DNA of 18,463 nucleotides from a virus (IMGVR_UViG_2703718769_000006), one strand, 5' to 3'. Shown: positions 1,495 to 17,819, counted from the first letter of the stretch. Program-made: numbers and translations. The notes: a model not told the origin generated them from the sequence alone.

Positions 1495-1495
1495 G

Positions 1496-1968: not shown

Positions 1969-1992
1969 ATATGAGAACCTCATTGTTACTGG

Positions 1993-2673: not shown

Positions 2674-3455
2674 GCTGCCACCTTATGCTCTGTGGCTTTC
2701 TGTTTAAGGAATCCAAGAGCCTTCTCTGCTTCGGCTTGGGACAGTTCTGACGACGCTCGAATGTTGCGGCGAAAAATCTGGGAACAGAGCGGCAACAGGT
2801 CGTCATCCCACGTTTTTTCCATGGAAGTAAGAAGGGCGTTAATTTCCGACATGGTTTCTTCGTTAACCGGGGTGATGTCGCGTTCCGGCTGACGTTCTGT
2901 AGTATATGCGGTATTTTCGACAATACGCTCGGCTTCATCCTTGTCATAGATGCCAGCAAATCCGAAGGCCAGGCGAGCACACTGAATCATGGCTTTGTGC
3001 CGTAACATCCGTTTGGGATGCGACTGCCACGGTCCGGTGATTTCTCTGCCTTCGCGGGTTTTGAATGGTGCGCGGCGACATTCATCCATCCACTCGGTAA
3101 CGCAGATCGGGTGATTGCGATCTTTGCGGTAAATCCGGCATGTACAGGACTCATTGTCCTGCTCAAAGTCCATGCCATCAAACTGCTGGTTTTCATTGAT
3201 AATGCGGGACCAGCCATCAACGCCAACCACCGGAACGATGCCGTTCTGCTTGTCAGGGAAGGCGTAAATTTCTTTCGTCCAGGGATTAAGGCCGTACTGG
3301 TTGGCGACGATCAACAATGCGATAAATTGCGCATCGCTGGCATCACCTTTAAATGCCGTCTGGCGAAGAGTGGTGATTAGTTCCTGTGGGTCGACAGAAT
3401 CCATGCCGACACGTTCAGCCAGCTTCCCTGCCAGCGTTGCGAGTGCTGTACTCAT
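2670..3455 (-). CDS. bet: Single-strand annealing recombinase Bet (Red beta)
   Basis: 261-aa product ([66 protein letters not shown]…) matches lambda Bet over its full length from memory. Confidence 0.95.
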
Positions 3456-3460
3456 CCGTT

Positions 3461-3757
3461 TTATACCTCTGAATCAATATTAATTTGGTGACGGGCGATG
3501 GTTTCAGCCATGTAGCGGATGTGTTCTGCCATGCGTTCCTGAAAATCGACATCGTCATCAAATGCACGGGAAATAGCTTTTTTGCTGGCCCCGTGACGTT
3601 GCAGATTATCGATGCATAGCGATTCAAACAGGTGTTGGGGCAGACCTTTTTCCAGGTCGTCTGCCAGCTCAGCTTCAGTTTCTTCACGGGCAATTTGCTG
3701 GTAGTGTCGTGCCCATGACTGCTCTTCAATGCGATCGGGGATAAGCCAGGCATTCAT
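3461..3757 (-). CDS. gam: RecBCD inhibitor Gam (short, 98-aa form)
   Basis: Product (…[48 protein letters not shown]…) matches lambda Gam. SD GGAGG lies 9 nt upstream; the ATG overlaps the TGA of the upstream ORF (ATGA). Confidence 0.9.
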
Positions 3758-5826
3758 GATTTATCACCTCCGAAATTTTCAAGCCTGTTGGCAATCATGA
3801 TGGCGATATCAGGGATTGCTGGCGCTGTGGCTATACATGCGGGGTTGGCGCACAAACCATAGACGGCGGCAATCACGAGCTGTCTTTTCCAGTCGAGAGT
3901 TACTGGCTCAGAATTGGCGTCATCGCCGGACGTATCACTGCCTGGCTCGTTCTGAACAACGGTTTCGCCCTCCTGAGCGGCATCAACAGAGTTTTCCTGA
4001 ATGATCTTCTCCTCAGTTTGTGCTGAGTCTTCTCCATCAGCGGCGTCATTTTCTCCAAAAGTTTCTGTGTAAGTGCTATCGCCCATTACCGCACTACAGT
4101 CAGGGCAGTTACCCCCGCCAGTCTGACCACAGACGCGGCAGTTTTTTTCCAGCTCCGGTTGCGCTACTGGGGCTGGCTGTTGCTCTTCTGGCCCGTTTTG
4201 TTGCGTATCCGGGCTGTTTTGTCCCGCTTCTGGGGCAATTTGTTCCACTTTGGACTGATTCTGGTCCTCAGTGTCGCGAGCCTGGATCCCCTTAATCCAC
4301 TTCGGGTCGGTTGGGGCGCTGATGCCTTCAACGAACTCCCCACGAGAGGCAGCCAGCAATTTGTCTGCATCGACAGGATTTTTGGGCGAAATGTTTTTCC
4401 TGGCTTCATGGAGTTCTGCTCTCAGTTCCTGGTATTTCGTTTCTACAGATGAGACATTTTCCAGTGATTGCGTGTCCGCATTATGTTTAACTGGAATTTC
4501 TTCCACTGACTCAGGCGCTGCCTGTTCATTAGACATTGCGTCCGATGTTTGCTGCTTTTCTTCATCGTCATGTATCTCTTCTGCTGTTCCGCGCTGCGGC
4601 ATTGGGGCTGATGAGCGACCGCAGGCGATTTCCACGATTTCCGGATCCGGGTTAGAGTGATCGGTTTCGGTCAACACTTTGTTGAGATATTCAGTCACGC
4701 GCGCCGGGATAGCCTCAATGCCGATTGGTGCTTCTTTCACTGAAGCCACCACAATGGCGCGGGAATAATCCAGCCCACCGGGCATGGCGATGAATTTGTC
4801 ACGGAAAACAGAAAAGGGCGGCTTATTCTCTGACACGATTTCTTCAACGCGTTTTGCGTGTGCTGGGTGCAGGTTATAAATATCCACATCCATTGAACGG
4901 GCCAGAACGCCAGTGGCAATGTCTCGCGCCAGTGATGCCTGATTGTGGGTAAAGCCTTCGCCACGATCGGTAAGATTTCCGCCGCCAGCGTTAGCACCGG
5001 AAGGCGTACGAGTGATGCCTGTAACATAATTTCCTTTCTGCCATTCTTTTGCCAGCAATCCCTGATCCACATAGTCTGTTTTCATCCAGGTGGAGATGAA
5101 CTTGTCGAATTCAGCCGGGCTGATGCGATGATTTGCAGAGTGGGGGAATGCTTTCCCTACAGATTCAGCTAGGCGACTAAGGTGATGGTTCGTCAGTTTA
5201 TCCAGTTCATGATGCGCGGCGCGCACAGCAGTAAGCAGGCTCTGAAGGTAACTGTCCTCTGTGTCCATCTCCATACGGATCACGTTATTGCGTTGTTCTG
5301 GTGTGGCATGATGCCGGTATTTTCCATCTTCATCTTTGCTGAATAAGAAGAGGTGAAGGAAGCGATGAGTAAGGCTCAGAGTGGCGACGGGAATTTCACA
5401 CTCAGAACAGTCATCGTCGCTGTCCGGGGATTCGCTTTTCTCCACATCATCCGGAATAGTTCCGTCCAGGTTATCGTTGTCATCGCCAGCAGTTGTGGCA
5501 TCTTCACCGTTGATGTTGTCATCGAAGGGGATAGCCATCATGGTGATGCCATCGTTACCGCCTTTTTCATAGCGGTTGCAGAATTCAGTATCAAACACGC
5601 CTTCCGGTGGAAGGTCATTCACGACGGGGAAATTTACGCGAACGGGTTTTTTGAAATCATCCTCGTCGTAGCCTGCATCGTCCATGGCTGCAATGCAGCG
5701 GGAAACTGCGACAGAAAGTTTTCTGGCCTCGGTCCAGAAAAAACCGCCTTTGATGTCAAGGCGTTTTCTGACTTTATCGTTTTTTGCTTCGCAGTGTAGT
5801 GCAAAAGTCTGTTTATCAGCACTCAT
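3754..5826 (-). CDS. Large acidic protein of unknown function (690 aa)
   Basis: Long uninterrupted ORF in the pL direction with a 4-nt ATGA overlap to gam. Contains long D/E/Q-rich low-complexity stretches, a CxxC-x8-CxxC motif ([16 protein letters not shown]) and a non-acidic central segment (…[42 protein letters not shown]…). No family recognised. Confidence 0.75.
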
Positions 5827-5900
5827 TGTATTTAAACCTCTGGCTGGATTAGAATTAGCGGCCCTTTGTCTGATTTCTCCGAATACGGTGACGCAGGGAG

Positions 5901-5937
5901 AAATCCGGTAGCCTGCGCTGCCGGATTTTTATTTCAG
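5901..5937 (+). terminator. Hairpin with U-run, oriented mainly for plus-strand transcription
   Basis: AAATCCGG-(12-nt loop)-CCGGATTT followed by TTTTATTTC on the plus strand. On the minus strand only UUUCUCC follows the stem. Lies between the 128-aa gene stop and the 690-aa gene start. Confidence 0.4.
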
Positions 5938-6320
5938 TGGAAGGTTGCCTGGTTTGCTGTTTTGTTAGTTGTTTTTTCCTTTTCGTGCTGGCATTCGGGG
6001 CAGTCGCACTCAGGATTTTCTCTTGCAAACTCAAGAGCCAGCGCCAGTTCATGGATTTGTTGTGCTTCAATGTTGCTTCTGACGACTTCACATGCGGCAT
6101 GAATATATGGGCTTGGTGTTTTGCCATTTAACCCACATGAAACCAAACGACTGTCTTTATATTCGTTATTTCCAACTTCTGTAAGCACTGAAAAAGAAAA
6201 TACAAAGTCGATTTTGTATTCTTTGCATATTTTACTGATGCGGTTTGCAATTTCATTAAGTTCATTTACTGCTGTCTTTTCGGTTTCAGAAAAGATTTGG
6301 TCAGGATTAAGTTCTTTCAC
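5934..6320 (-). CDS. Hypothetical protein (128 aa) with C-terminal Cys cluster
   Basis: ORF in an AT-rich segment; GTG start with AAAGGA 8 nt upstream; C-terminal CDCPEC motif. No family recognised. Confidence 0.5.
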   Translation of the reverse strand: MKELNPDQIFSETEKTAVNELNEIANRISKICKEYKIDFVFSFSVLTEVGNNEYKDSRLVSCGLNGKTPSPYIHAACEVVRSNIEAQQIHELALALEFARENPECDCPECQHEKEKTTNKTANQATFH

Positions 6321-6409
6321 TTTATATGTCCTTTTTTTAAGGCCTATGGTGCTGTTATATCTGGCATGAAACTGAATTGTCTGAATATCAAGTTGAGGGG
6401 TTAGAGTTC

Positions 6410-6670
6410 ATGTGCCATCTGGTCATTTTCGGCGCATTGCTTACTGCAATATTGCCGCTCTTCGGTTACGGGGATTGTGCCTTTCATAAAATGAAGATGA
6501 CTTTTAACGGATTTGGTTTGTTCGGTTTCCTTATTGCAGAGATGGTAGGCACATTTTATTTTTACATTTATCACCATGACTCCGCTTTTACAGGTAAACC
6601 ATCACGTCCGAGGAAGACTTTAATCATGCAATCGGTAATGCATGTTTTTGTCGTGAAGTTACGAATATAG
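6410..6670 (+). CDS. Putative small membrane protein with two hydrophobic helices
   Basis: ORF 6377..6670; an internal Met at 6410 ([20 protein letters not shown]…[21 protein letters not shown]) gives two hydrophobic segments. Plus strand, divergent from the 128-aa gene and overlapping the 3' end of the minus ORF 6571..6792. Confidence 0.3.
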
Positions 6671-6792
6671 AGTTTTCTCTTTTCAATATTGTTTGCTGAA
6701 GCGATATATGTCCGCCCTTCATGAAGAACATAATCGCCAGGTGTCACGCACTGACGTGGTATTTCATCAGTTCTGAAGTGATGAGCAATCAT
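6571..6792 (-). CDS. Hypothetical protein (about 73 aa)
   Basis: ORF 6571..6810; the Met at 6792 is preceded by GGAG with a 6-nt spacer. In the pL-operon orientation. Confidence 0.35.
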
Positions 6793-6965
6793 AATTATCT
6801 CCATTTTCACAAATGAACTTTGTTGATGCGGTGCCTGGTGCCTCCAGGTGACGTTAACCAGTTAACAATTAACGCCGGGTCAGGGGACGATGACTTTCCG
6901 TGACATCCTGTCGGTTTAACTGTTCCGCGTGCGCTGAGCCGCATTCACCGCATCACAAAATTCAC

Positions 6966-7011
6966 TTTAAAAAAGGGCGGATATCAGCCAGCAATTAAAC
7001 TGATATCCGCC
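6966..7011 (-). terminator. Strong rho-independent terminator, possibly the 3' end of a small RNA
   Basis: Perfect 12-bp inverted repeat GGCGGATATCAG…CTGATATCCGCC (6976-6987 / 7000-7011) followed on the minus strand by UUUUUU. Sits inside a 440-bp stretch with no minus-strand ORF (6811-7252). Confidence 0.55.
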
Positions 7012-7165
7012 AATGACTACACACAGCAATGTTGTTATTCACAACCGGAAGCGCACGGTCGAAGAAATCTAACGACAAGCCTTCAAAGGGAAAGAGTCTT
7101 CGCCGTGCGCTTTCGTGTTGCACCCTGGCTTTTCAGGGTAATATCTGTTCAGTAAACTGACAGTG

Positions 7166-7194
7166 CCGGATGCTCACCCGTGTCCGGCGCACGA
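7166..7194 (+). promoter_or_regulatory. Conserved leader element, copy A
   Basis: CCGGATGCTCACCCGTGTCCGGCGCACGA; 27 of 29 positions match the reverse complement of 15775-15803. It ends exactly 58 nt upstream of the ATG at 7253 and is followed by the hairpin CTCCAC-N7-GTGGAG. Confidence 0.5.
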
Positions 7195-7252
7195 ACTCCA
7201 CCTGACCCGTGGAGAACTCCTCAACTACAAACCCCGTAAGGAGAGTGAATTT

Positions 7253-7462
7253 ATGACACAAGAAGAAAAAGTGATGTTTCTGATGCGGCTGGCTGTCGAT
7301 ACCTACAACACACAATTCAGGGAGAAAGATATACCTCAAAAGGCAGTTCCTGCCGCGGTAGATAAGGGCGGTGCTATTGCCGTATTTTACGATGCATTTG
7401 AATCATTTTTTGATGAAAAACTCGATGCTGTTAGCGACTTCGGAACATCGAGTAATAAATAA
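7253..7462 (+). CDS. Small hypothetical protein A (69 aa), antisense to the pL operon
   Basis: Strong SD AAGGAGAG 7 nt before the ATG at 7253 (ORF track 7163..7462). Product MTQEEKVMFLMRLAVDTYNTQFREKD… Overlaps the 3' end of the convergent minus ORF by about 32 nt. Confidence 0.5.
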   Translation: MTQEEKVMFLMRLAVDTYNTQFREKDIPQKAVPAAVDKGGAIAVFYDAFESFFDEKLDAVSDFGTSSNK

Positions 7463-7790
7463 CGTTCATTACGGTTCTTAAACAACAATCAGTGGGCTTG
7501 ATGTTGTTCTTTTCAAGCTCACTTGCCATCACTTCCATTATTCTTGCGCTTACACGAATTATTTGGTGGCTGTAAGCGACGCAACTGTCGCTGATATTGC
7601 TGTTTATTTCTATTACTTCATTTTCACCATTAGCATCAACTTCGGATGCGCTGTTTTCATTATCCTGTTTCAGTGCTTTTTCTGCCATCTGGATGCGTGT
7701 CAGCGTTGCGGAATTTGGGCTAAGTCGATAAACCTGTTTGGCATCTTCCAGAAGCAGGGCGATAATGTGCTTCAGTTCTGTTTCGTTCAT
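7431..7790 (-). CDS. Hypothetical protein (about 119 aa)
   Basis: ORF 7431..7811; the Met at 7790 has GGAG 6 nt upstream. Lies 31 nt downstream of the 238-aa gene, suggesting an operon. Confidence 0.5.
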   Translation of the reverse strand: MNETELKHIIALLLEDAKQVYRLSPNSATLTRIQMAEKALKQDNENSASEVDANGENEVIEINSNISDSCVAYSHQIIRVSARIMEVMASELEKNNIKPTDCCLRTVMNVIYYSMFRSR

Positions 7791-7821
7791 AGTTAACTCC
7801 GGTAGTTGCAATTTATTAATA

Positions 7822-8535
7822 TCAGGCGGTCAGTTCTTTAAGCTTCTGAACAGCTTTATTCATTTCATCCATACAGTCGATGAATTCGTCCAGTTTAAGC
7901 TGCATTTTTCCGGCGGCCTGAAGAATTTCAAGTTTTAAGGGCGCAAGTTTTTTGTTGAATACATCATCTTCCTGGCGTTTTTTCTCCGCAATTTCGGCGG
8001 CTTTCAGCAATTCTTCCGCCTGCTTTCTGAGTATTTCTGGTGAAGGTGAAACTGCTTTTAGGTTATTCATTTCAGGTTCCTGTTGTTGCAGAATTAATTT
8101 GTTGCATTCTCTGCGTGAGCGTTTCATTGCAGATTCGCACTTCTTGCAATAAATGGCTCTCCCGTCACGTTTGCTGGCATCTGAATAAAAATCATCGACT
8201 GATTTTGTCTGCCCGCATCTGGTACATAATTTTGATTGAAGGTCCTTAATGATTGTGACGTTTCCTTCCCGCTTGGGATATCCATATTTTTTGTGGCGGA
8301 AAAAGGTTACTCCGTTACCAGAACCTTCTTTTCTGACCTTAAATACAATGATGCTTTCCCGTTTATCGATAAAATCTATGAGCTGGTTTCTCTCCTTTCC
8401 TGACAGTTCGGCAAATGTCTTAACTTTTTTAGTAACTTCCGTAAGGCGAACGCCGTCAGGCATTTTTTCAACGAAGTTTTTAATCTCTGCAAGCGGACGC
8501 CATAATTTTTGCGGCAAAACTGAAGGCGTGGTCAT
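7822..8535 (-). CDS. Hypothetical protein with Cys4 zinc-ribbon-like motif and C-terminal predicted coiled coil (237 aa)
   Basis: ATG at 8535 preceded by GAGGTG. Motif CTRCGQTK…x21…CKKCESAMKR; K/E-rich heptad-like C-terminus. No family recognised. Confidence 0.6.
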   Translation of the reverse strand: MTTPSVLPQKLWRPLAEIKNFVEKMPDGVRLTEVTKKVKTFAELSGKERNQLIDFIDKRESIIVFKVRKEGSGNGVTFFRHKKYGYPKREGNVTIIKDLQSKLCTRCGQTKSVDDFYSDASKRDGRAIYCKKCESAMKRSRRECNKLILQQQEPEMNNLKAVSPSPEILRKQAEELLKAAEIAEKKRQEDDVFNKKLAPLKLEILQAAGKMQLKLDEFIDCMDEMNKAVQKLKELTA

Positions 8536-8572
8536 CAATCACCTCGCTTTTTTTTACTGATTTGTTTATGCC

Positions 8573-8601
8573 AAAAATAAAGGCCACCATCAGGCAGCCT
8601 T
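8573..8601 (-). terminator. Terminator-like hairpin after the ral-like ORF (has U-runs on both strands)
   Basis: Minus-strand RNA AAGGCUGCC-UGAU-GGUGGCCUU followed by UAUUUUUGG. The plus strand also has GTTTTTCTGTTT after the stem. Confidence 0.45.
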
Positions 8602-8757
8602 GTTTTTCTGTTTGCTAAGTTCTCTGGCAATCATGGCCGTAGTTCGTATTGCCCACACCATTGATTTGTATCAATAGTCGTAGTCATCCGGATAGTCCTG
8701 GTATTGTTCCATCACATCCTGTGGATGCTCTTCGAACTCTTCAAATTCTTCTTCCAT
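8590..8757 (-). pseudogene. ral: Ral-like (restriction alleviation) reading frame interrupted by an in-frame TGA
   Basis: Minus-strand frame reads MEEEFEEFEEHPQDVMEQYQDYPDDYDY-stop-YKSMVWAIRTTAMIARELSKQKNKAA-stop. The C-terminal 19 residues closely match the lambda Ral C-terminus (…WAIRTTAMIARELGKQNNKAA) as recalled from memory. The TGA at 8671-8673 splits it into a 28-aa and a 23-aa piece. Confidence 0.4.
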
Positions 8758-8888
8758 ATCTCACTTCAAATAAGTGGTTTGCTGCCTAATTTTATTTTCT
8801 GGCGACCAACACAAGTCACACCCGTTTCACTGCGTGGCTTGCGGTAGTAAATTTTGTTAGTCCAAACAATAAAATCTACTGAAGTGGG

Positions 8889-9221
8889 TTATGACCATTT
8901 TTTATTTGGATTTCGTTGGTGAGCGTGGTTAACAACTCTGTGCATTATATCCTCATATTTTTCATCTTTAATTTTTTCAACATCTCGAGGAAATGGTGTT
9001 GCTAATGCTTTGTCAACTTTGTCCATTGGGTCTTCATTAATCTTATATTCCGGACCGTCATCTATAGCATTAAATCCAGGTGTTATACCGTTTTCTAATG
9101 CATATGCTATTCTCTTTTCCCAGCTCGCTATCCTCCTTCTGTCTCGAGATGTAAGGCTTCTATCAGATACTTTTCTGTTTTGTCCGCGATTAGGATTAAC
9201 ATAAATAGTCTTTTTCACCAT
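8889..9221 (-). CDS. Hypothetical basic protein (about 110 aa)
   Basis: ORF 8889..9242 with candidate starts at 9221, 9227 and 9242, all overlapping the 3' end of N (stop at 9196) in another frame. No family recognised. Confidence 0.4.
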   Translation of the reverse strand: MVKKTIYVNPNRGQNRKVSDRSLTSRDRRRIASWEKRIAYALENGITPGFNAIDDGPEYKINEDPMDKVDKALATPFPRDVEKIKDEKYEDIMHRVVNHAHQRNPNKKWS

Positions 9222-9534
9222 AAGCATACTCAATAAGTCCATACGGTGGTTTACTGTACAATTTTATTTTTTGAACTGCATGTATTTTGTTTCCTAATGG
9301 GTTTGAATCCTTGTAATAAGTACTTCTGTTTTTGCGCTCGACTTCTTCTGCCTTCTTGTTGCGAAGGCTGCCGAGTGATGCTGCTTTGTCTGCTCTGACG
9401 CAACCAGAGATCTTTAGCGCAATCTTCCGCGTCAGTCTTTCACTACTGCGCCGCTCTGCAATAAGTTCTTCCCTGCGAGCTTTATAGCGGCTTTTTGCCG
9501 TACCTTTGGATTCTTTCCAGATTATGGTTACCAT
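9196..9534 (-). CDS. N: N-like transcription antiterminator (phage-21 type)
   Basis: ATG at 9534 with AAGGAG 6 nt upstream. The N-terminus MVTIIWKESKGTAKSRYKARREELIAERR matches the phage 21 N arginine-rich motif as I recall it; the C-terminal region (…ERKNRSTYYKD…QKIK…) resembles lambda N. nutL lies upstream. Confidence 0.8.
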   Translation of the reverse strand: MVTIIWKESKGTAKSRYKARREELIAERRSSERLTRKIALKISGCVRADKAASLGSLRNKKAEEVERKNRSTYYKDSNPLGNKIHAVQKIKLYSKPPYGLIEYAYGEKDYLC

Positions 9535-9643
9535 GATGGTCTCCTTTAAGTGGCTTTGGTGTATGACGCGTCGAGGTGTTTTTCTTCTCGATCGCGGCCT
9601 TGCAACTGAAATTCGCGTCATCCCCAAAACCACTTAGATTTTG

Positions 9644-9684
9644 GTCTCAACGGTTAGGTTGAGAGTCCATCAATGTTAAAGAGC
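9644..9684 (-). promoter_or_regulatory. nutL (boxA and boxB)
   Basis: Minus strand reads GCTCTTTAACATTG (boxA-like, the same sequence as at nutR), then a hairpin CTCAAC-CTAACC-GTTGAG (boxB) upstream of N. Confidence 0.7.
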
Positions 9685-9733
9685 CTGCCAATCTGTTCCG
9701 TTTGGCTTCCAGCGTCCTGCTGTTGAATTGAAG

Positions 9734-9772
9734 ATAACCTAAGTTATCTGATTGTGCAATAACTATATTTAT
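9734..9772. promoter_or_regulatory. OL operator sites (pL region)
   Basis: ATAACCTAAGTTAT (9734-9747, perfect ATAAC-N4-GTTAT dyad) and ATAACTATATTTAT (9759-9772, one mismatch). Same half-site family as the cI-cro intergenic operators. Confidence 0.6.
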
Positions 9773-9867
9773 CATTTTATGGAAAGCGTTATAAATGGCT
9801 GATAACAAAAATATTTTATTTTTTGTGGTATCCGCGTGATATTTTCAAGGGGGAAAGGCTGATTGTT

Positions 9868-10089
9868 ATGGGTGATTGCATGTTAATCGAAGGGGAATTT
9901 GGTGTGTTGCACCAGCGGGTAGTCGAAATTCTAGGGGTGTCGTTGCTTGAGGTTATTGCTACTGGGGAAGCTATTTCAGCAGATGCTATTGCGGGAATGA
10001 TCCGAGTGCTTCACCATGATGAATTGGATGATCTCGCTGTGAAGTTAGCTATAGATGTGTTACTTCAGGATATGCGACTGTGTAATTAA
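9868..10089 (+). CDS. Small acidic hypothetical protein (73 aa) in the rex position, opposite strand to cI
   Basis: ORF 9823..10089; the Met at 9868 follows a purine-rich AAGGGGGAAAGG. Lies between OL and the cI 3' end, convergent with cI, and ends just before a bidirectional hairpin. Confidence 0.4.
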   Translation: MGDCMLIEGEFGVLHQRVVEILGVSLLEVIATGEAISADAIAGMIRVLHHDELDDLAVKLAIDVLLQDMRLCN

Positions 10090-10090
10090 G

Positions 10091-10117
10091 TAAATAAAAC
10101 CCGGCACTGGAGCCGGG
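10091..10117 (-). terminator. Terminator downstream of cI (bidirectional hairpin)
   Basis: CCCGGC-ACTGGA-GCCGGG stem-loop. On the minus strand it is followed by UUUUAUUUA; on the plus strand by a weaker GGAUUU. Confidence 0.55.
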
Positions 10118-10241
10118 GGATTTAGAAATGGCATTTTATGAATTGGCTACTTGGCGAATGGTTTACCATCGGTGGTATTGAGCACAATAAAAGGCCGTTC
10201 TTCGTGAGTGTTCTTATAGCAAAAGTTCAGTTGGAGTCTGA

Positions 10242-10949
10242 TTACCAGCTATGTGATGACCAGAACACTCGTCCTATGATTTTTACGTTTTTGTAGAATT
10301 CTTCTCTGTTCATTACTTCATCAGGATACTCTTCGCGGTTTATCGATCTGATAATTACCGATGTTGGTGTGGCTATTAGCGTTTTTACCCTTAACAAATC
10401 AGCTTGGCAAATTGCATATGTTTTACCATCCCTGATGCTCGTATCTTGCGTGTTTACCCCCACCACATCACCATCATGGAGTGTTGGCTCCATACTTTGC
10501 CCAACAACCCTGACCAACTTTGCCGCTTTTTCTGGAACTCCCATTTTTTTCAGGTAATAGCGCCTAAAAACTAGAGAGAATTCTGCGGACTCCTCCAATG
10601 CACAACTTCCTCCGCCAGCTGAAAGTGAAATATTTAGAAGGGGGAGCGCAACAAATTCGTCATTATCATTTTGATGATCATCCCAGGCGATAGCTTTTAA
10701 AGATGATTCCCGAGCATTAGATGGCTCTTCTGCGCTCTGTGGTCTCATTGACCCTATACCAGAGCTTAGCCACTCAGGGCGAACTCTTAACGCGTTGGCT
10801 AATTCGACCATTTTACGTGATCCGGTTGTTTTACCAGATGACATCTTTTGTATGGCTGGTTGTGATACCCCCACCATGTCTGCAAGTTGTGCTTGTGACA
10901 ACCCGGCTGAACTCATGGCGGCATTTAGTCTTTCTGCGAATGTTTTCAT
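10242..10949 (-). CDS. cI: CI-type prophage repressor (HTH plus S24 LexA-like autocleavage domain)
   Basis: 235-aa product with N-terminal HTH (LSQAQLADMVGVSQPAIQKM), an Ala-Gly cleavage region (SAGGG) and Ser/Lys dyad motifs (GQSMEP … KTLI). Divergent from cro with operators between them. Confidence 0.9.
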   Translation of the reverse strand: MKTFAERLNAAMSSAGLSQAQLADMVGVSQPAIQKMSSGKTTGSRKMVELANALRVRPEWLSSGIGSMRPQSAEEPSNARESSLKAIAWDDHQNDNDEFVALPLLNISLSAGGGSCALEESAEFSLVFRRYYLKKMGVPEKAAKLVRVVGQSMEPTLHDGDVVGVNTQDTSIRDGKTYAICQADLLRVKTLIATPTSVIIRSINREEYPDEVMNREEFYKNVKIIGRVFWSSHSW

Positions 10950-10955
10950 ACCTGT

Positions 10956-11034
10956 AATCTATAACCACGGTTATCAAAAGTAAAACAACAATTGTTATTG
11001 CTCTGTTGTATAACTCATGTTATTTTTGGTTATG
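10956..11034. promoter_or_regulatory. OR region: three operator dyads plus candidate pRM and pR
   Basis: Three sites of the form ATAAC-N4-GTTAT at 10961-10974 (ATAACCACGGTTAT), 10985-10998 (ACAACAATTGTTAT) and 11010-11023 (ATAACTCATGTTAT), centres about 24 bp apart. TAGATT on the minus strand (10956-10961) sits about 7 bp before the cI ATG, as for a leaderless pRM transcript. Confidence 0.7.
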
Positions 11035-11059
11035 CTTTATTTGCTGTAGAGGTATGCTC

Positions 11060-11284
11060 ATGAATTTAGTGATTCAGCGAGCCTTGAATATTGTTGGCAG
11101 TCAAAAACGACTTGCAGCTGATTGCGGCGTATCACAGCCCGCTGTTCATAAATGGTTGCGAGGCGGAAAAGTTTCTCCTGAAAAAGTTTTCGCTATCGTT
11201 AATGCCACCAATGGTCAGGTTAAGGCTTACGAAATTCGCCCGGACTTACCGCACCTGTTTCCTCATCCGAACCAGGCTGAATAA
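11060..11284 (+). CDS. cro: Cro-like small HTH regulator (74 aa)
   Basis: ORF 11006..11284; the ATG at 11060 has AGAGG 7 nt upstream. HTH segment QKRLAADCGVSQPAVHKWLRGG. Divergent from cI. Confidence 0.75.
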   Translation: MNLVIQRALNIVGSQKRLAADCGVSQPAVHKWLRGGKVSPEKVFAIVNATNGQVKAYEIRPDLPHLFPHPNQAE

Positions 11285-11291
11285 GTAACAC

Positions 11292-11333
11292 CGCTCTTTA
11301 ACATTGCTGGTCGTTCACCTCTAACAGGGTGAG
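11292..11333 (+). promoter_or_regulatory. nutR (boxA and boxB)
   Basis: CGCTCTTTAA (boxA-like) followed 12 nt later by the hairpin TCACC-TCTAACAG-GGTGA, between cro and cII. The boxB loop is CTAAC-rich like the nutL copy. Confidence 0.7.
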
Positions 11334-11399
11334 CAAACATCAGTGGCAAACCCATTGGGATTGCCGCTTAACCCCATATCAATATAGGAAAATTAACAA

Positions 11400-11696
11400 A
11401 TGTCACAAACAAGTTACAGCAAACTGTCGCAGCGCGATATCGATCGCGCTGAAACGGATTTACTTATCAACCTGTCAGTTCTGACGCAAAGGGGACTGGC
11501 GAAGATGATTGGCTGCCATGAATCGAAGGTCAGTCGTACCGACTGGCGATACATCGCGGCGATTTTATGTGCGTTCCAGATGGCATCTGATATCAGTCCG
11601 ATCAGCCGGGCTTTCCAGCATGCCATTCGCGTTCATGCAAATAAAAAACGTCCGGTTGGGGCCGGACGTTCTGAGCAAATCCTGATGAATATCTGA
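11400..11696 (+). CDS. cII: CII-like transcriptional activator
   Basis: 98-aa product; the C-terminus …NKKRPVGAGRSEQILMNI parallels lambda CII …NKKRPAATERSEQIQMEF. HTH in the middle; position after cro and nutR. Confidence 0.85.
   Translation: MSQTSYSKLSQRDIDRAETDLLINLSVLTQRGLAKMIGCHESKVSRTDWRYIAAILCAFQMASDISPISRAFQHAIRVHANKKRPVGAGRSEQILMNI
11641..11669 (-). terminator. oop-like antisense terminator within the cII 3' end
   Basis: Minus strand reads ACGTCCGG-CCCCAA-CCGGACGT followed by TTTTTTAT. Same position and orientation as the lambda oop terminator overlapping the cII C-terminus. Confidence 0.6.
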
Positions 11697-11760
11697 TATT
11701 CAGGCAGGGCATGGAGCAATACACGGGAATAATTCTGCCACATCTGGAAGAATTTCGCCA

Positions 11761-11916
11761 GCAACAACACCAACCGCAGCAGCCTGAAGCCGATTGGGTT
11801 AACCCGGAGATACCGGGACCGTCTGTGAAGATGTGCAGTCACACCAATGTGCAGTCACACCAACCGCAGCAGCCTGAAGCCGATTGGGTTAACCCGGGAG
11901 ATACCGGGACCGTCTG
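11761..11916. repeat. Two tandem copies of an approximately 60-bp repeat upstream of the O-like gene
   Basis: Copy A 11767-11826 and copy B 11857-11916: ACACCAACCGCAGCAGCCTGAAGCCGATTGGGTTAACCCGG(G)AGATACCGGGACCGTCTG. Each carries the dyads GGGTTAACCC and CCCGG-N5/6-CCGGG. The short tandem GTGCAGTCACACCAA occurs twice between them. Confidence 0.85.
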
Positions 11917-11949
11917 CGGTATGGAGTAAATCTTGTATGCGAGGGGACT

Positions 11950-13032
11950 ATGCGTAATTACGCAACAATTTCACCTCAGTTCTGGTTAGGCGATACAGGG
12001 CGAAAACTAAGGAAGTCTGGTCCGGAATGTATGGTAGTGGCGTTGTATATGATGACCTCGCCTCATTCCAATATGCTGGGCCTTTATTACCTGCCTGTTT
12101 TGTACATTGCTCACGAAACCGGACTTGATCCTGAAGGGGCTTCTAAGGGGCTTCAAATGGCTTGCGAGGCTGGTTTTTGCAGCTATGACCATGATTCTGA
12201 GGTTGTATGGGTGCATGAAATGGCAGCATGGCAGGTTGGTGAATCGCTGAAACCTGGCGATAACCGTTGTGCTGGGGTAAGAAATGAATATTCCGCGTTG
12301 CTGGAAAATCCTTTTTTATCATCATTTTATGATAGATATAAGGATGATTTCCACCTGGATGTCAGACGTGAATCATGTCGGAAAATTGAAGCCCCTTCAG
12401 AGCCCCTTTCAAGCCAAGAACAGGAACAGGAACAGGAACAGGAAAGAGATAAAACCCTTCTGGTCCATGGCGAAAAAATCGCCACGGACCCACTGGTGGA
12501 TTCTTGTCCCGTTCTGACTGAACGTCCAGGACCAGCTGGCATGACACCGGAAGCAGATTCCGGGCGTTGTGTGCAGCAGGTGCTGCTCGTCGAACCGGAG
12601 CAACAACACCAACCGCAGCAGCCTGAAGCCGATTCCGCGATGAGCGGGAAGCCGATTGGGTTAACCCGGGCGATGCCGGGACCGTCTGCGGGACGAGTTG
12701 ATTATCCTGACGTGTTCGAACGGGTCTGGCGTGAATATCCGCATCGGGCAGGGTCAAACCCGAAGAAATCCGCGTTCAATGCCTGGAGGGCCAGATTACG
12801 CGAAGGGGTGTCACCGGATGTCGTGCTGGATGGCGTGAGGCGTTACGCAAGATACCTGGAGGCTACCGGGAAAGCGGGAACTGAATTTGTTCAGCAGGCA
12901 TCGACGTTTTTTGGCCCGAACAGGAATTTCGAAAATCCGTGGTCGCTGCCGAAGGCTGGCGCAGTCAGCCTGCGTTGCGTGAATCACATTTCTGAACCGG
13001 ACACCGAAATTCCGCCGGGTTTCAGGGGGTAA
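11950..13032 (+). CDS. Replication initiator (O-like replisome organiser)
   Basis: 360-aa ORF directly upstream of a DnaC-like loader gene. Its central linker has low-complexity SQEQEQEQEQER and a third copy of the repeat. Function is assigned by position and architecture, not by a recognised motif. Confidence 0.65.
   Translation: MRNYATISPQFWLGDTGRKLRKSGPECMVVALYMMTSPHSNMLGLYYLPVLYIAHETGLDPEGASKGLQMACEAGFCSYDHDSEVVWVHEMAAWQVGESLKPGDNRCAGVRNEYSALLENPFLSSFYDRYKDDFHLDVRRESCRKIEAPSEPLSSQEQEQEQEQERDKTLLVHGEKIATDPLVDSCPVLTERPGPAGMTPEADSGRCVQQVLLVEPEQQHQPQQPEADSAMSGKPIGLTRAMPGPSAGRVDYPDVFERVWREYPHRAGSNPKKSAFNAWRARLREGVSPDVVLDGVRRYARYLEATGKAGTEFVQQASTFFGPNRNFENPWSLPKAGAVSLRCVNHISEPDTEIPPGFRG
12415..12444 (+). 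repeat. (CAGGAA)n hexanucleotide tandem repeat inside the O-like gene
   Basis: caagaa followed by four perfect caggaa units, encoding the EQ-repeat linker. Confidence 0.9.
12606..12691. repeat. Third, interrupted copy of the 60-bp repeat, inside the O-like coding sequence
   Basis: ACACCAACCGCAGCAGCCTGAAGCCGATT-[ccgcgatgagcgggaagccgatt]-GGGTTAACCCGGGCGATGCCGGGACCGTCTGCGG; the same unit as 11767-11826 with an internal duplication of GAAGCCGATT. Confidence 0.85.
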
Positions 13033-13038
13033 TCAGCC

Positions 13039-13779
13039 ATGAAAAACATTTCGACAGGAGGGATTCTTGAACGGGTGCGCCGTCTGGCACCACCGCACGT
13101 GGCAGCACCGTTCCGGACGACCGACGAATGGCGGGAATGGCAACTGGCTGAGGGCCGGAAGCGCAGCGAGGAAGTTAACCGCCAGAATCACCAGACGCGG
13201 GTTGAAAAAATCCTGAATCGTTCGGGCATCCAGCCGCTTCACAGGAAGTGCTCATTCGGGAACTACCGGGTGCAGAACGACGGTCAGCGCCATGCTCTGA
13301 GTCTGGCAAAATCCATCGCGGCAGAACTGCATACCGGCTGCACGAATTTCGTGTTCAGCGGTAAACCTGGCACCGGGAAAAATCACCTTGCAGCAGCGAT
13401 TGGCAACTGGCTGATGGCGAAGGGGAGAAGCGTGATTATCGTCACCGTGTCCGATGTCATGAGTGTGTTGCATGACGGCTACGACAACGGCAAGTCTGGT
13501 GAGAAATTTTTACAGGAACTTTGCGGGGTAGACCTTCTGGTCCTTGATGAAATTGGCATGCAGCGGGATACGCGCAACGAGCAGGTCATACTGAACCAGA
13601 TCGTCGACCGCAGAACGGCATCACTGCGCAGTGTCGGGATGCTGACGAACCTGAATCACGCAGCTATGAGCACACTCCTCGGCGAGCGGGTGATGGACCG
13701 TATGACCATGAACGGTGGTCGTTGGGTGAATTTTAACTGGGAGAGCTGGCGATCAAACGTTGGGCGTCAGGGTATGTGA
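13039..13779 (+). CDS. DnaC/IstB-like AAA+ helicase loader
   Basis: 246-aa product with Walker A (FSGKPGTGKNHLAAA) and Walker B (LLVLDEIG) motifs; follows the O-like gene by 7 nt. Confidence 0.85.
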   Translation: MKNISTGGILERVRRLAPPHVAAPFRTTDEWREWQLAEGRKRSEEVNRQNHQTRVEKILNRSGIQPLHRKCSFGNYRVQNDGQRHALSLAKSIAAELHTGCTNFVFSGKPGTGKNHLAAAIGNWLMAKGRSVIIVTVSDVMSVLHDGYDNGKSGEKFLQELCGVDLLVLDEIGMQRDTRNEQVILNQIVDRRTASLRSVGMLTNLNHAAMSTLLGERVMDRMTMNGGRWVNFNWESWRSNVGRQGM

Positions 13780-13804
13780 GAATTTTTGACGAGGTAAATT
13801 TTCG

Positions 13805-14575
13805 ATGGAAACCGTATTGCATGCACTGAAAGCGATGGGAAAAGCCAATTCTGTTGAACTGGCGGCGCGGCTTGATATCAGCCGTGAAGAAGTTCTCAAC
13901 GAACTGTGGGAACTCAAAAAAAATGGCGTTGTTGATAAAACGGGTCACACCTGGTTTCTGGCTGTCGAAGGTGAATCCGGGGTAACCGAAGGGCAGGCAC
14001 TACAACCTGAAGCGCCGGATGTGGTAACCGAAGAGGTCGCTCCAAAAGTTAGCGCTGACATGATGATTGAGTTTATCGCTCAGGAGGGGGCTAAAACCTG
14101 TGAAGAAATAGCGGGTAAGTTCGGCGTTACCACTCGTAAGGTTGCTTCCACGTTGGCGGTAGTAACAGCAACGGGGCGCCTGGTGCGCGTGTCTATCAAG
14201 GGAAAATTCCGTTATAAAGTGCCTGGCGTTGAAAACGGCGATTTGAGCGCGTCATCATCGCAGGATGAGAAATCACACCACGAAGCAGAAAACAGCGCGT
14301 CAGGCGGCGAACTGAATCGTTCTCCGTTGATGTCAGAGGGCACGGCAAAGGCCTGTACAGATGAGTTTATCCAGGATGTTCCGTCGTTCACCGAAAAATA
14401 TGCTGGTGCAGTGCCCCTTCCACCTCTACGGGCCGCCAGTCGTGAACTTCGTCGCGCCAAAAAACAGGTCCAGAAGTGGGAGCGTGTCTGTGCTGCACTA
14501 CGTGAGCTGAATAAACACCGGGAAATTGTCATGCAGATTACCGATTCATCCAGCAGTATTGCATCGGAAAAGTGA
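13805..14575 (+). CDS. Hypothetical protein with two predicted winged-helix-like segments (256 aa)
   Basis: Two segments resembling winged helix-turn-helix (…ANSVELAARLDISREEVLNELWELKKNGVV… and …AKTCEEIAGKFGVTTRKVASTLAVVTATGRLV…) and a basic C-terminus. Confidence 0.55.
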   Translation: METVLHALKAMGKANSVELAARLDISREEVLNELWELKKNGVVDKTGHTWFLAVEGESGVTEGQALQPEAPDVVTEEVAPKVSADMMIEFIAQEGAKTCEEIAGKFGVTTRKVASTLAVVTATGRLVRVSIKGKFRYKVPGVENGDLSASSSQDEKSHHEAENSASGGELNRSPLMSEGTAKACTDEFIQDVPSFTEKYAGAVPLPPLRAASRELRRAKKQVQKWERVCAALRELNKHREIVMQITDSSSSIASEK

Positions 14576-15033
14576 TAACTGGAGAGCTTATGGCAAAAGT
14601 ATTTACACCCGAAGAGCGGGAAAAAATTAAGGAGCAGATCGTTGAATTTGTGCGCCAGAGTGGACGTGAGACGTTACGGGCTCTGGAAGCTAAAACTGGT
14701 GCATCAAGGTATTACATAAACACTCTCGCCAGAGAACTGGTCGCAAGTGGTGATGTTTACAATTCAGGTTACGGATTATTCCCGTCTGAGCAGGCGCGTA
14801 AGGACTGGCAAAATGCCCGCAAAAAACTCTCGAGAGCAAAGGCAAAGAAACCGGTTGTCGTTGATCCCGGTCTTATCCGGGCATTACCCGATGGGGAAAT
14901 ACGGCGCTACGACAGACGCTACAACACAATTTGTCGCGAGTGCCGTAACAGTGAAGCAATGCAGCGTGTGCTGGCATTCTATAGACGTTGCGCACAGGCA
15001 AATAACAGTCTGCATAGCCGTGTATTGGCTTAA
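14572..15033 (+). CDS. Hypothetical protein with one winged-helix-like segment (153 aa)
   Basis: Overlaps the upstream stop (ATGA-type coupling). Segment …GRETLRALEAKTGASRYYINTLARELVASGDV… An alternative start is the Met at 14590. Confidence 0.5.
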   Translation: MITGELMAKVFTPEEREKIKEQIVEFVRQSGRETLRALEAKTGASRYYINTLARELVASGDVYNSGYGLFPSEQARKDWQNARKKLSRAKAKKPVVVDPGLIRALPDGEIRRYDRRYNTICRECRNSEAMQRVLAFYRRCAQANNSLHSRVLA

Positions 15034-15045
15034 CAGGAGCTAAAC

Positions 15046-15546
15046 ATGCATTTGAATAAAGAGCATCAATCCATGATGGGCAAGCGCCAGACAGAAGAGG
15101 CTGTTCGCGATCTGGAAAAACTACTTGGCTATCGTGAAACAAAACTGCTTTTCCTGGTTCCGGTTATTCGCCAGAAGGTTGAGGAAATTCTTGAAGAAAA
15201 TGGCATCCCGAAAGAATACATGACGGATGCCATGGAATATTCACTCGAACTGGTACGAATTACTCCTGATCTGACCTGGCTTGATGAGTATCAACAACAA
15301 TTTGAGAAAGGCGCAGAAACGTTACTTTCTGCTGCTGATAAAACAGAGCAGAAAACAGAACCATCGGTATTCTGGAATACCGTTGAGGCTATTGCCAGGA
15401 GCAAGATATTTGAGTTTAACAACATCAATCATTCCGGGAGAGACACTCATCAATCATCACATCTTGAGGGGGTGTCCATGCTTCTAGCTCTGTTGCGAGA
15501 GCAAGGCGAATGTCCTCAGTCGACATTGAACGACACTGAGCAATAG
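15046..15546 (+). CDS. Hypothetical protein (166 aa); 3' end uncertain
   Basis: ORF follows the previous gene by 12 nt. Its last 120 nt overlap the convergent 96-aa ORF, so one of the two C-termini may be wrong. Confidence 0.45.
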   Translation: MHLNKEHQSMMGKRQTEEAVRDLEKLLGYRETKLLFLVPVIRQKVEEILEENGIPKEYMTDAMEYSLELVRITPDLTWLDEYQQQFEKGAETLLSAADKTEQKTEPSVFWNTVEAIARSKIFEFNNINHSGRDTHQSSHLEGVSMLLALLREQGECPQSTLNDTEQ

Positions 15547-15715
15547 TCCATCCGTATTTTCCGGCAAGATAAAGATATATTGCGTCAAAGCCATAAATAG
15601 TCCTTGGATACCCCTCTTTAATAGCCAGAGAGTCCCCGAAGCATTCAAGAAAGTAATTTGAGCGGGCTGTTTCGTAATGAAAATTCCAGCGAGCCTGATT
15701 GAGTTTTTTGTCCAT
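15425..15715 (-). CDS. Small hypothetical protein B (96 aa), antisense to the pR operon
   Basis: ATG at 15715 preceded by GGAGGATAA. The conserved leader element lies exactly 58 nt upstream, as at gene A. Confidence 0.5.
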   Translation of the reverse strand: MDKKLNQARWNFHYETARSNYFLECFGDSLAIKEGYPRTIYGFDAIYLYLAGKYGWTIAQCRSMSTEDIRLALATELEAWTPPQDVMIDECLSRND

Positions 15716-15774
15716 TTATCCTCCATTGTTGCTCTGTTTTGAAAAATGGAGACCTTCACGCTGCAACGTGAGGT

Positions 15775-15803
15775 CGTGCGCCGGACACGGGTAAACATCC
15801 GGT
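15775..15803 (-). promoter_or_regulatory. Conserved leader element, copy B
   Basis: Minus strand reads CCGGATGTTTACCCGTGTCCGGCGCACGA (27 of 29 positions match 7166-7194), followed by the hairpin CCTCACG-N6-CGTGAAGG, then 58 nt to the ATG of protein B. Confidence 0.5.
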
Positions 15804-15848
15804 ATTCAAAATTTAATGTTAACGAATTTTTAATATTGAGGTTATGAC

Positions 15849-16106
15849 GTGAACAACAAAATCAATATTCCTCTCGAAATTAAAGAAATTAACGAAATCA
15901 TTGAGGTTACTGATCGCCCCGAGTTTACCCTCATGCACCGTTATGAAACGGGAACCGACGAGCAAAAATACATCATGGTTGCAGCATTGGCTGTGATGGC
16001 GATAGAAAGGGAGCGGAGGGAAAAGGACGTAATGGTTATTCCGGCGAGAAATGATTCACCGGATTTGAGATGGCAGGAGCCGGAGTGGGATGTGGCAATC
16101 CGGTGA
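15849..16106 (+). CDS. Hypothetical protein (85 aa), GTG start
   Basis: GTG at 15849 with TTGAGG 7 nt upstream and TAATAT (15831-15836) as a candidate -10. Divergent from protein B. Confidence 0.45.
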   Translation: MNNKINIPLEIKEINEIIEVTDRPEFTLMHRYETGTDEQKYIMVAALAVMAIERERREKDVMVIPARNDSPDLRWQEPEWDVAIR

Positions 16107-16156
16107 TTGATATTTCTCTGGGGTAAAGCGCCGCCAGAATGACGGCGCGGTGAATT

Positions 16157-16525
16157 TTACGCAGCTTTACCCAGCGTAAAATCAAAGTGGATGTCGTCAT
16201 ACGGAAAAGATGTTCCATTTTCTCCTTTTTCCAGGAGGCCGTTGCTAATCAGTGCGGTTACATCCGTGTGTACGGCTTTTACGTCACGCCCGACCAGAGC
16301 GGCAATCTCACGGATTGACAGTTCTCCGGCACCAGTCATCGCCATGAGTATGTCCATGCGCTTAGGGGTAAGCACTTTATGCATCATTTGCCAGTCTGGG
16401 AATGAAACGATGCTTTCGTTCTTTGACGTCATTCCTTCGGCAACCGCTTTAAAGGCAGACAACACATCTGCCGTGAAAGCATCCATTGATTCAATACGTA
16501 TTGTAACTGTTTTCATATCAGGCAC
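16157..16525 (-). CDS. Predicted HTH DNA-binding protein (122 aa), second gene of a two-gene operon
   Basis: Segment MDILMAMTGAGELSIREIAALVGRDVKAVHTDVTALISNGLLEK resembles a winged HTH. Its start overlaps the upstream ORF stop by 8 nt. Confidence 0.65.
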   Translation of the reverse strand: MPDMKTVTIRIESMDAFTADVLSAFKAVAEGMTSKNESIVSFPDWQMMHKVLTPKRMDILMAMTGAGELSIREIAALVGRDVKAVHTDVTALISNGLLEKGENGTSFPYDDIHFDFTLGKAA

Positions 16526-16805
16526 CTCTGCGAATGGATTCTACATCATGGAGGAAGTCAGCAATGAGTTGCTCGATGGAAACAAAGTGGGTACTGATTT
16601 CCTGAGCACCAATGTGTTTGTGGTCGCCTTTACCTCTTTCGTTGTCGTAGCGCATGACGCAAACACCATCAACAACGTAAGCCATGCTGTATTTGAAGTT
16701 ATGGCGGCTACCAAGAACGGCTGGAGCCACCTCCCAGATTTTAATCCTTATGTATTCGGATTCCCCAAGATGGCGAATGAACTCTTTATACAGTTTGGAT
16801 GGCAT
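16518..16805 (-). CDS. Small protein (95 aa), first gene of the operon; toxin-like partner candidate
   Basis: ATG at 16805 with GGAG 5 nt upstream; a sigma70-like promoter (TTGACA-17-TATCCT on the minus strand) lies immediately upstream. No catalytic motif recognised. Confidence 0.6.
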   Translation of the reverse strand: MPSKLYKEFIRHLGESEYIRIKIWEVAPAVLGSRHNFKYSMAYVVDGVCVMRYDNERGKGDHKHIGAQEISTHFVSIEQLIADFLHDVESIRRGA

Positions 16806-16823
16806 AAAAACTCCGTGTATTTA

Positions 16824-16893
16824 TGTTGTTAAGGATAACAACAGTGCATAGCGTTGTCAATTAATACAACATCAATGCTGAGTTGACGACAAC
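16824..16893. promoter_or_regulatory. Divergent promoter region with palindromic operators
   Basis: Two GTTGT-N8-ACAAC dyads: 16825-16842 (overlapping the -10 TATCCT of the minus promoter) and 16853-16870 (overlapping its -35 TTGACA, plus 16855-16860). A GTTG-ACGA-CAAC dyad (16882-16893) overlaps the -35 of a plus-strand promoter (TTGACG 16883-16888, TATATT 16907-16912). Confidence 0.6.
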
Positions 16894-16969
16894 ACTTATC
16901 CGGGATTATATTCTTCGCACGGTCGAGTTGGCCGTCGGGATTGGAACCCCGGATAGAGACCGCGACAAA

Positions 16970-16995
16970 CACACGCCGCGAGCGTGTTTTTTATT
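16970..16995 (+). terminator. Rho-independent terminator inside the leader upstream of the antirepressor gene
   Basis: ACACGC-CGCGA-GCGTGT followed by TTTTTTATT on the plus strand, about 75 nt downstream of the predicted plus-strand start site and 160 nt upstream of the ATG at 17154. Confidence 0.55.
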
Positions 16996-17153
16996 GTCGT
17001 ATGCACGCGCACATCTGAATTATGGTGGGGCGCATGGGGGAGCTGAAAAGCTCGCCGGTCGGTTTCCCGGTAGTTCCAACCCTGTGCGTCTCACCACCCG
17101 ATGATTGGAACCTTACGGTGGTGATAGTTTAGAAACCACTAGAGGGCGTCATT

Positions 17154-17819
17154 ATGACAACTCAAATCTCTGTTGAAACCATCTCCCCGATTACCCATAA
17201 CCAGATTCCTGTTATTACCACCGAGCTTTTGGCACAACTTTATGGCACCGAAACTAATAACATCAAAGTGAACTATACACGCAATGCCGAGCGTTTTGTT
17301 TGTGGGAAACACTACTTCAAATTGGAAGGGGCTGGATTGCGGGAATTTAAGAATAAGGTTACTCAAAGTAACTTAGTTGCACCGCGTACAAAGCACCTCA
17401 TCCTTTGGACAGAACGCGGGGCAGCCCGTCACGCAAAAATGCTCGAAACTGATCAGGCATGGGAAGTGTTCGAAAAACTGGAAGACTGCTATTTCAGCCA
17501 GGGAAAAACAACACAAACCGAACAGCAGCCGCAGATTCAGCCGCAATTCACAGCAGAAGACATCATCCTACTCTGCTACGTTCAACTCTGGATGGAAAAA
17601 GCACAACAACTCAGTAAGCAGCTATACCCCGTCATGAGAGAACTGAACTCTGATTACTACGGGAAACTGTTTGATCTGGCCTACGAGACTCGTCATATAA
17701 CCAACCGGACTCGCGACACATTGCTCCGCGAAGCAGCAAAACTTGATCCCGCCAACTATATGGTGCATAGGGCCAGAAGCATGCTGGCGCAACTACGGGC
17801 AAGACAATTTGAATTCTGA
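17154..17819 (+). CDS. Phage antirepressor-like protein (ORF6N/Bro-N-type N-terminal domain)
   Basis: N-terminal region …IPVITTELLAQLYGTETNNIKVNYTRNAERFVCGKHYFKLEGAGLREFKN…LILWTERGAARHAKMLETDQAWEVFEKLED is the characteristic ORF6N antirepressor domain pattern. SD AGAGGG 7 nt upstream. Confidence 0.8.
   Translation: MTTQISVETISPITHNQIPVITTELLAQLYGTETNNIKVNYTRNAERFVCGKHYFKLEGAGLREFKNKVTQSNLVAPRTKHLILWTERGAARHAKMLETDQAWEVFEKLEDCYFSQGKTTQTEQQPQIQPQFTAEDIILLCYVQLWMEKAQQLSKQLYPVMRELNSDYYGKLFDLAYETRHITNRTRDTLLREAAKLDPANYMVHRARSMLAQLRARQFEF

Follow-up and report, generated by a model that had tools for sequence, protein, structure and literature searches.

The TumE-TumA toxin-antitoxin superfamily was defined by Durairaj et al. 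(Nature 2023; PMC10584680). DUF6516 proteins were described there as having an alpha+beta fold, in which seven antiparallel strands are set against two helices, with no match in the PDB, and their genes were found in two-gene operons with diverse partners (PMC10584680). All six gammaproteobacterial TumE proteins tested were toxic in E. coli and were fully neutralised by their cognate TumA; TumE of Allochromatium tepidum lowered 35S-Met incorporation, metabolic labelling having been applied to this TumE only, and RNase activity was proposed, not demonstrated (PMC10584680). In the tested cluster, which includes a RelB-like type of partner, the DUF6516 gene predominantly follows the partner gene; the validated pairs belong to subcluster 1a (PMC10584680). 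From the lengths of the synthetic DNAs in the supplement of that paper, we estimated the validated TumE proteins at ~116-137 aa and their antitoxins at ~76-109 aa. The literature searched on DUF6516, HVO_A0114 and TumE-TumA yielded no follow-up experimental work.

Here we describe a gene pair in an 18,463-nt stretch of viral DNA (IMGVR_UViG_2703718769_000006; "the window" is this whole stretch). Most probably these genes form a type II toxin-antitoxin operon that represses itself and belongs to the TumE-TumA family, and an Stx1c prophage carries them as an exchangeable cassette. A first-pass annotation had likened these two genes to a toxin-antitoxin or abortive-infection cassette, and this likeness is supported by the Pfam families PF20126 and PF25212 and by the RefSeq names of the products. 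The TumE-TumA family has been known since 2023 and the exact proteins of the window are already named in RefSeq; therefore, no new category is opened. What is added is modest: an operator layout, a candidate specificity residue, probable leaderless transcripts and a swap site in Stx phages.

The tumE-tumA gene pair

The two genes, designated tumE and tumA, are as follows.

16518-16805, minus strand: tumE, putative toxin of 95 aa (ATG 16805-16803; stop codon TGA 16520-16518)
16157-16516, minus strand: tumA, putative antitoxin and autorepressor of 119 aa (ATG 16516-16514; stop codon TAA 16159-16157)

Two co-directional minus-strand open reading frames had been proposed at 16518-16805 and 16157-16525, with an 8-nt overlap and a second product of 122 aa. 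Both frames were found, the second beginning at 16516, but the overlap and the length of the second product did not hold. The 122-aa reading rests on a GTG codon at 16525, which was rejected as a start because it lies inside the Shine-Dalgarno sequence GAGGTG, and because homologues from 78 loci align from the ATG-encoded methionine at 16516 (MKTVT...), a start that is identical in RefSeq. TumA is thus assigned 119 aa, and a single nucleotide lies between the tumE stop codon and the tumA start codon. The Shine-Dalgarno sequence of tumE is GGAG at 16814-16811, and that of tumA sits within the last codons of tumE; because of this position and the 1-nt distance between stop and start, tumA translation is predicted to be coupled to that of tumE.

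The product of the first gene matches Pfam PF20126 (TumE, formerly DUF6516) with an E value of 2e-14 and 53.7 bits, against a gathering cut-off of 23.4. The match spans profile positions 6-81 of 81, so that the domain is complete relative to the Pfam model, and PF20126 is present in 120 of 120 TumE homologues among the matches listed. The same protein is RefSeq WP_001141115.1, named "toxin-antitoxin system TumE family protein" by PGAP; in PHROG it belongs to phrog_16135, a family without an assigned function, and no NCBIfam model matched it. The AF2 model (pLDDT 94.5) has six strands and one C-terminal helix, and a sequence search of all PDB chains returned nothing, the best E value of 7.4 being noise. 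The TumE alignment contains invariant H35, K38 and Y39 and the invariant block Y53-D-N-E-x-G-K-G-D-H62, followed by a nearly invariant K63 and an invariant H64. The earlier statement that the first gene has no recognisable motif was therefore wrong, given the Pfam TumE domain with its invariant YDNExGKGDH(K)H block. Judged from the strand register of the model, D54, E56, H62, H64 and Y39 would share one face of the sheet, and this cluster is a candidate catalytic or metal site.

The product of the second gene matches Pfam PF25212 (HVO_A0114), a winged-helix DNA-binding family, with an E value of 1e-24, and gives weaker matches below cut-off to MarR, ArsR and HTH_20 profiles. It corresponds to RefSeq WP_000860148.1 (119 aa; PGAP name "HVO_A0114 family putative DNA-binding protein") and, like TumE, to a PHROG family without an assigned function. 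The AF2 model of TumA (pLDDT 78.5) consists of an N-terminal beta-alpha-beta region and a winged helix, with a predicted recognition helix at residues 79-91. The beta-alpha-beta unit occupies the N-terminal 40 residues, is modelled with lower confidence and may be the toxin-binding part of the protein; the C-terminal two-thirds match the fold of a generic winged helix. Comparison of TumA with all PDB chains by sequence gave sub-threshold ArsR matches only, and a Foldseek search of the PDB gave generic winged-helix regulators only, with E values no better than 2.5e-3. Many NCBI records call the 113-119-aa winged-helix homologues of TumA (P0121-P0184) "glycosyl transferase family 1", which is evidently a propagated annotation error.

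A scan with the TumE alignment of one genome per bacterial species gave at least 593 loci, of which the 80 closest were analysed. These best 80 of at least 593 loci came from Alpha-, Beta-, Gamma- and Deltaproteobacteria, Holophagales, Nitrospirota and other groups. A TumA homologue lies directly downstream of tumE on the same strand in 78 of the 80, and the remaining two end at a contig edge, so that pairing was found in 78 of 78 informative loci, with distances between the genes of mostly -4, -20 or +1 nt. Pairing and the toxin-first order therefore define the tumE-tumA branch. TumE was also found on 71 plasmids, mostly from Acetobacter, Rhizobium and Burkholderiaceae, and in one of 50,697 phage records. 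Of the 5426 complete E. coli genomes, 21 have the cassette, which is chromosomal in each case, and the two E. coli lineages of the cassette that were examined both lie within prophage-like regions.

Promoter, operators and operator specificity

The control region upstream of tumE contains the following elements.

16832-16860, minus strand: tumEA promoter (-35 TTGACA at 16860-16855; 17-nt spacer; extended -10 TGtTATCCT at 16840-16832)
16825-16842, palindromic: proximal operator GTTGTTAAGGATAACAAC, spanning the -10 hexamer and the predicted start site
16853-16870, palindromic: distal operator GTTGTCAATTAATACAAC, covering the -35

The first-pass annotation had placed a TTGACA-17-TATCCT promoter here with GTTGT-N8-ACAAC dyads over the -10 and the -35, and both elements were recovered: the promoter at 16860..16832 with a TG extension, and the dyads as two perfect palindromes at 16825-16842 and 16853-16870. 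In the promoter scan, 10 of 12 positions matched the consensus, and transcription was predicted to start near 16825, giving a leader of ~20 nt. The promoter-proximal arm of the distal operator overlaps the -35 on the coding strand (TTGACAAC), and the centres of the two operators are 28 bp apart. No further perfect GTTGT-N8-ACAAC exists in the 18.5-kb window, for which 0.02 occurrences are expected from shuffled sequences.

Conservation of this layout was examined by scanning the operator core as GTTG-N10-CAAC across 81 loci. We found 100 occurrences in the 8.1 kb upstream of tumE, compared with 14 in the other 378 kb of these loci. The core is present upstream of tumE in 58 of the 81 loci, and in 40 of them there are at least two copies; paired operators are spaced by 28 bp in 38 loci, the window included, and by 29 bp in 11. 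The consensus of the operator-promoter region is TGTTGga.t.aTTGACAACAc.......TGTTGttAT..tcTcCAAC, in which the distal dyad holds the -35 TTGACA and the spacer of the proximal dyad holds the -10. In 38 related loci the -35 and -10 are placed relative to the dyads just as in the window. A 77%-identical E. coli cassette (L002), which lies in a different prophage slot adjoining ash and Rha genes, keeps both dyads and their spacing, whereas the dyad spacers and flanks have diverged. Six loci (L022, L036, L052, L054, L058 and L063) may have a shorter core spacing of about N9, as seen by eye in L022 only.

The annotation of L002 deserves a separate remark. PGAP gives an "ash family protein" coding sequence at 3155-4276 (plus strand) against tumE at 2903-3190 (minus strand), and the 5' end of the former covers the tumE start and the entire tumEA promoter/operator region. 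Either the start of the ash coding sequence is over-extended or two divergent units overlap there.

In most non-enterobacterial relatives (L013-L084), the ATG of tumE directly abuts the proximal operator arm (CAAC followed immediately by ATG), and the -10 lies only ~7-12 nt upstream of the ATG. From this geometry it follows that most relatives of tumEA probably produce leaderless tumE mRNAs. The enterobacterial versions, including that of the window, have a leader of about 20 nt with the GGAG Shine-Dalgarno sequence.

Half-sites and protein vary together. In ten loci (L009, L013, L037, L039, L042, L049, L053, L057, L067 and L080), GATG...CATC half-sites replace GTTG...CAAC. All ten have F or M at residue 79 of TumA, which lies in the motif R-D-V-K-A-V-H, and this residue is V or I in 59 of 59 loci with GTTG-class operators, the latter comprising 58 GTTG-only loci (window included) and one mixed locus with GCTG and GTTG. 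In the AlphaFold model, the predicted recognition helix begins with residue 79. Because the sequences are related, the 69/69 co-variation overstates the independent evidence; about three independent switches are supported, at least three being needed on the neighbour-joining tree of TumA, and one M79 group shares 77-78% identity with a V79 neighbour. Residue 79 is thus a candidate single-residue determinant of operator specificity.

Taken together, the conserved number, spacing and position of the operators and the co-variation of their half-sites strongly support autorepression through the dyads, and the computational evidence is strong that TumA would bind them and repress its own promoter. 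Autorepression by the encoded HTH protein, as first suggested from the dyads, is in keeping with this comparison of operator conservation and residue 79 co-variation. At the sequence level the locus has the arrangement of a type II toxin-antitoxin operon, with palindromic operators overlapping the operon's own promoter.

The prophage slot and alternative readings

Escherichia phage phiSTEC1589-Stx1c and prophages in nine complete E. coli genomes match the window at 99.9% identity; in these genomes the prophage adjoins a truncated ynfG at the integration site and carries stx1c. Judged by sequence identity, the window is Stx1c-converting lambdoid prophage sequence. Positions 1-16000 represent the early left arm and the immunity/replication region of the Stx1c prophage, in the order integrase (71-1234, minus strand) beside the truncated ynfG, Exo/Bet/Gam and a 690-aa RecE-family gene, kil, an S24-peptidase CI-like repressor, a cII-family regulator gene, a replication initiator and a DnaC-like loader. 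The features around tumEA are listed below.

~16152-16881: exchangeable accessory cassette, delimited by homology breakpoints against related Stx phages
16128-16148: GC-rich hairpin of ~8 bp, read directly from the sequence, with TTTA next on the minus strand
16883-16912, plus strand: divergent promoter TTGACG-18-TATATT, from the promoter scan
16919-16992, plus strand: isrK-like Hfq-binding sRNA (RF01394) with its own terminator at 16971-16987
17018-17101, plus strand: C4 antisense RNA (RF01695), downstream of the isrK-like sRNA
17154-17819, plus strand: ORF6N/P22_AR_C antirepressor gene, the last part of the divergent module

The left breakpoint of the cassette is at 16151/16152, as defined by Shigella phage POCJ13, which is 98% identical over 15865-16151 and divergent beyond; the right breakpoint is at 16881/16882, as defined by Stx2a phages, which are 94.6% identical from 16882 onwards. 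The gene context confirmed the earlier placement of the cassette between the replication genes and the nin region. In the same slot and on the same strand, POCJ13 (L085 3958-4519) carries a Gp49/HigB-like toxin gene (PF05973) followed by an HTH_3 antitoxin gene; in VT2phi_272 (L003 2191-2448), the gene next to the same divergent promoter encodes a ParD-like antitoxin. On this sequence comparison, toxin-antitoxin cassettes replace one another in the interval from the replication-region genes to the isrK promoter; such a swap site agrees with the function assigned to tumEA. The hairpin at 16128-16148 lies 9 nt past the tumA stop codon, within the flank shared with POCJ13 and between tumA and a convergent gene (15849-16106, plus strand). 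It is possibly a weak or bidirectional terminator; the terminator scan did not call it, and a good T-run is absent.

The divergent module at 16883-17819 (plus strand) lies outside the cassette, and its promoter drives the isrK sRNA, the C4 RNA and the antirepressor gene; it is 94.6% identical in many Stx2a phages that do not carry tumEA. This isrK-C4-antirepressor module is an immunity/antirepressor switch resembling the immI region of phage P1. It also resembles the Gifsy-1 IsrK locus (PMC4825925). The first-pass annotation had noted a divergent promoter carrying a related dyad. The promoter was found, as TTGACG-18-TATATT at 16883-16912, and the dyad proved to be a GTTG-N4-CAAC element, GTTGACGACAAC, at 16882-16893. 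GTTGACGACAAC was rejected as a third TumA operator, its spacing being N4, not N10, and the element being unchanged in the Stx2a phage VT2phi_272, which has no tumEA.

The position and distribution of the cassette bear on what the operon is for. The pair could be a dedicated abortive-infection or superinfection-exclusion module and not an addiction module, a reading that is compatible with the toxin-antitoxin mechanism and that we consider possible but on balance unlikely. It would suit a slot where related Stx phages have toxin-antitoxin cassettes of other kinds, a constitutive-type promoter of the cassette's own that points away from phage early transcription, and the rare and patchy occurrence in E. 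coli (21/5426), which is typical of defence cargo. However, TumE matches no family in PADLOC-DB v2, from which the TumE/TumA pair is also absent and in which TumA finds only weak wHTH matches to Csa3/CasR/CARF regulator domains; no defence report on TumE/DUF6516 was found in the literature searched; and large plasmids of alpha- and betaproteobacteria commonly carry the family, which plasmid maintenance would explain equally well.

A different role was also considered, namely a non-toxic regulatory pair in which TumA is a phage transcription factor and TumE a co-regulator or modulator of promoters such as that of isrK-C4-antirepressor. That the branch is shorter than the validated toxins and has the reversed gene order would agree with such a role, as would the GTTG...CAAC-like element that lies just 12 bp away from the distal operator, at the -35 of isrK. 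This element, however, is spaced by N4 instead of N10 and is also kept by phages that have no tumEA, the window holds no further perfect operator, and operator-like sites elsewhere around the loci are at background (the 14 in 378 kb). Moreover, the pair occurs with its own operators on plasmids and chromosomes of unrelated bacteria with no phage genes around, and the TumE domain is complete over Pfam positions 6-81 of 81. We therefore regard a purely regulatory pair as improbable. That the reading frames, promoter and dyads came together by chance, or are the functionless remains of a decayed locus, is refuted by the conservation data, with both frames intact and paired in 78/78 informative loci across phyla, two perfect dyads against 0.02 expected, co-variation between operator and recognition helix, and protein models that are confident (TumE) or moderately confident (TumA).

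Proposed mechanism and comparison with known systems

As an autorepressed toxin-antitoxin operon, tumEA would function as follows. The sigma-70 promoter would transcribe a bicistronic tumE-tumA mRNA, and TumA, probably as a dimer, would bind the two 18-bp palindromes over the -35 and over the -10 and start site, thereby repressing its own operon. TumA would also neutralise TumE by direct binding. When TumA is depleted, which may be triggered by loss of the prophage, by transcription shut-off or by an infecting phage, free TumE would be toxic and, by analogy with the tested relatives, would block protein synthesis. The resulting growth arrest may stabilise the prophage, abort the infection, or both.

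We tentatively propose that a short TumE with a downstream winged-helix TumA constitutes a distinct branch of the superfamily, set apart by three features. The first may be a deeply conserved and self-contained control region, in which the -35 and -10 lie within two palindromes spaced by 28 bp, the mRNA appears to be leaderless in most members, and residue 79 (V/I versus F/M) appears to set T-versus-A operator specificity. The second may be the invariant cluster H35, K38, Y39, D54, E56, D61, H62 and H64, as a new catalytic or metal site. The third may be the use of interchangeable cassettes in Stx phages, back-to-back with the isrK-C4-antirepressor switch, for prophage retention or phage exclusion. 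The analysis places a TumE-TumA module in a Shiga-toxin-converting phage, in a slot where related Stx phages have HigBA-like or ParD-like genes, and bears on the stability of prophages and the exclusion of phages in STEC. The operator model (sequence, spacing, promoter overlap and candidate specificity residue) is absent from the original description of the superfamily, and it makes TumA-DNA recognition directly testable.

With the TumE-TumA superfamily, the locus shares the TumE/DUF6516 domain, a tight two-gene operon and a small DNA-binding partner; the predicted fold, a compact antiparallel sheet packed on helix without a PDB relative, may be shared as well. Compared with validated TumE, the toxin of the window is shorter (95 aa), with six strands and one helix instead of seven strands and two helices. 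The bicistronic pair is conserved, but its order is reversed relative to the predominant order of the defining paper: here the toxin gene comes first, whereas the partner is predominantly upstream in the validated pairs. The partner is, by computation, a predicted DNA-binding winged helix with co-varying operators; it is a 119-aa protein of the HVO_A0114 family, in contrast to validated antitoxins of ~76-109 aa.

TumA resembles ArsR/MarR repressors in its winged helix and in its proposed binding as a dimer to palindromes in its own promoter. It differs from them in that its matches to their profiles fall below the family cut-offs and it has its own Pfam family, HVO_A0114, and in having an extra N-terminal beta-alpha-beta unit, an obligate toxin partner and no evident ligand or metal site. 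The operon as a whole differs from HigB-HigA in its components, TumE being outside the RelE/ParE superfamily and TumA being a winged helix and not a Cro/C1-type HTH_3 protein. Nevertheless, tumEA is organised like HigB-HigA and Gp49-HTH_3 systems, with the toxin gene first, the HTH antitoxin gene second and autoregulation via promoter palindromes, and the Gp49-HTH_3 cassette of POCJ13 occupies the same prophage slot and strand as tumEA.
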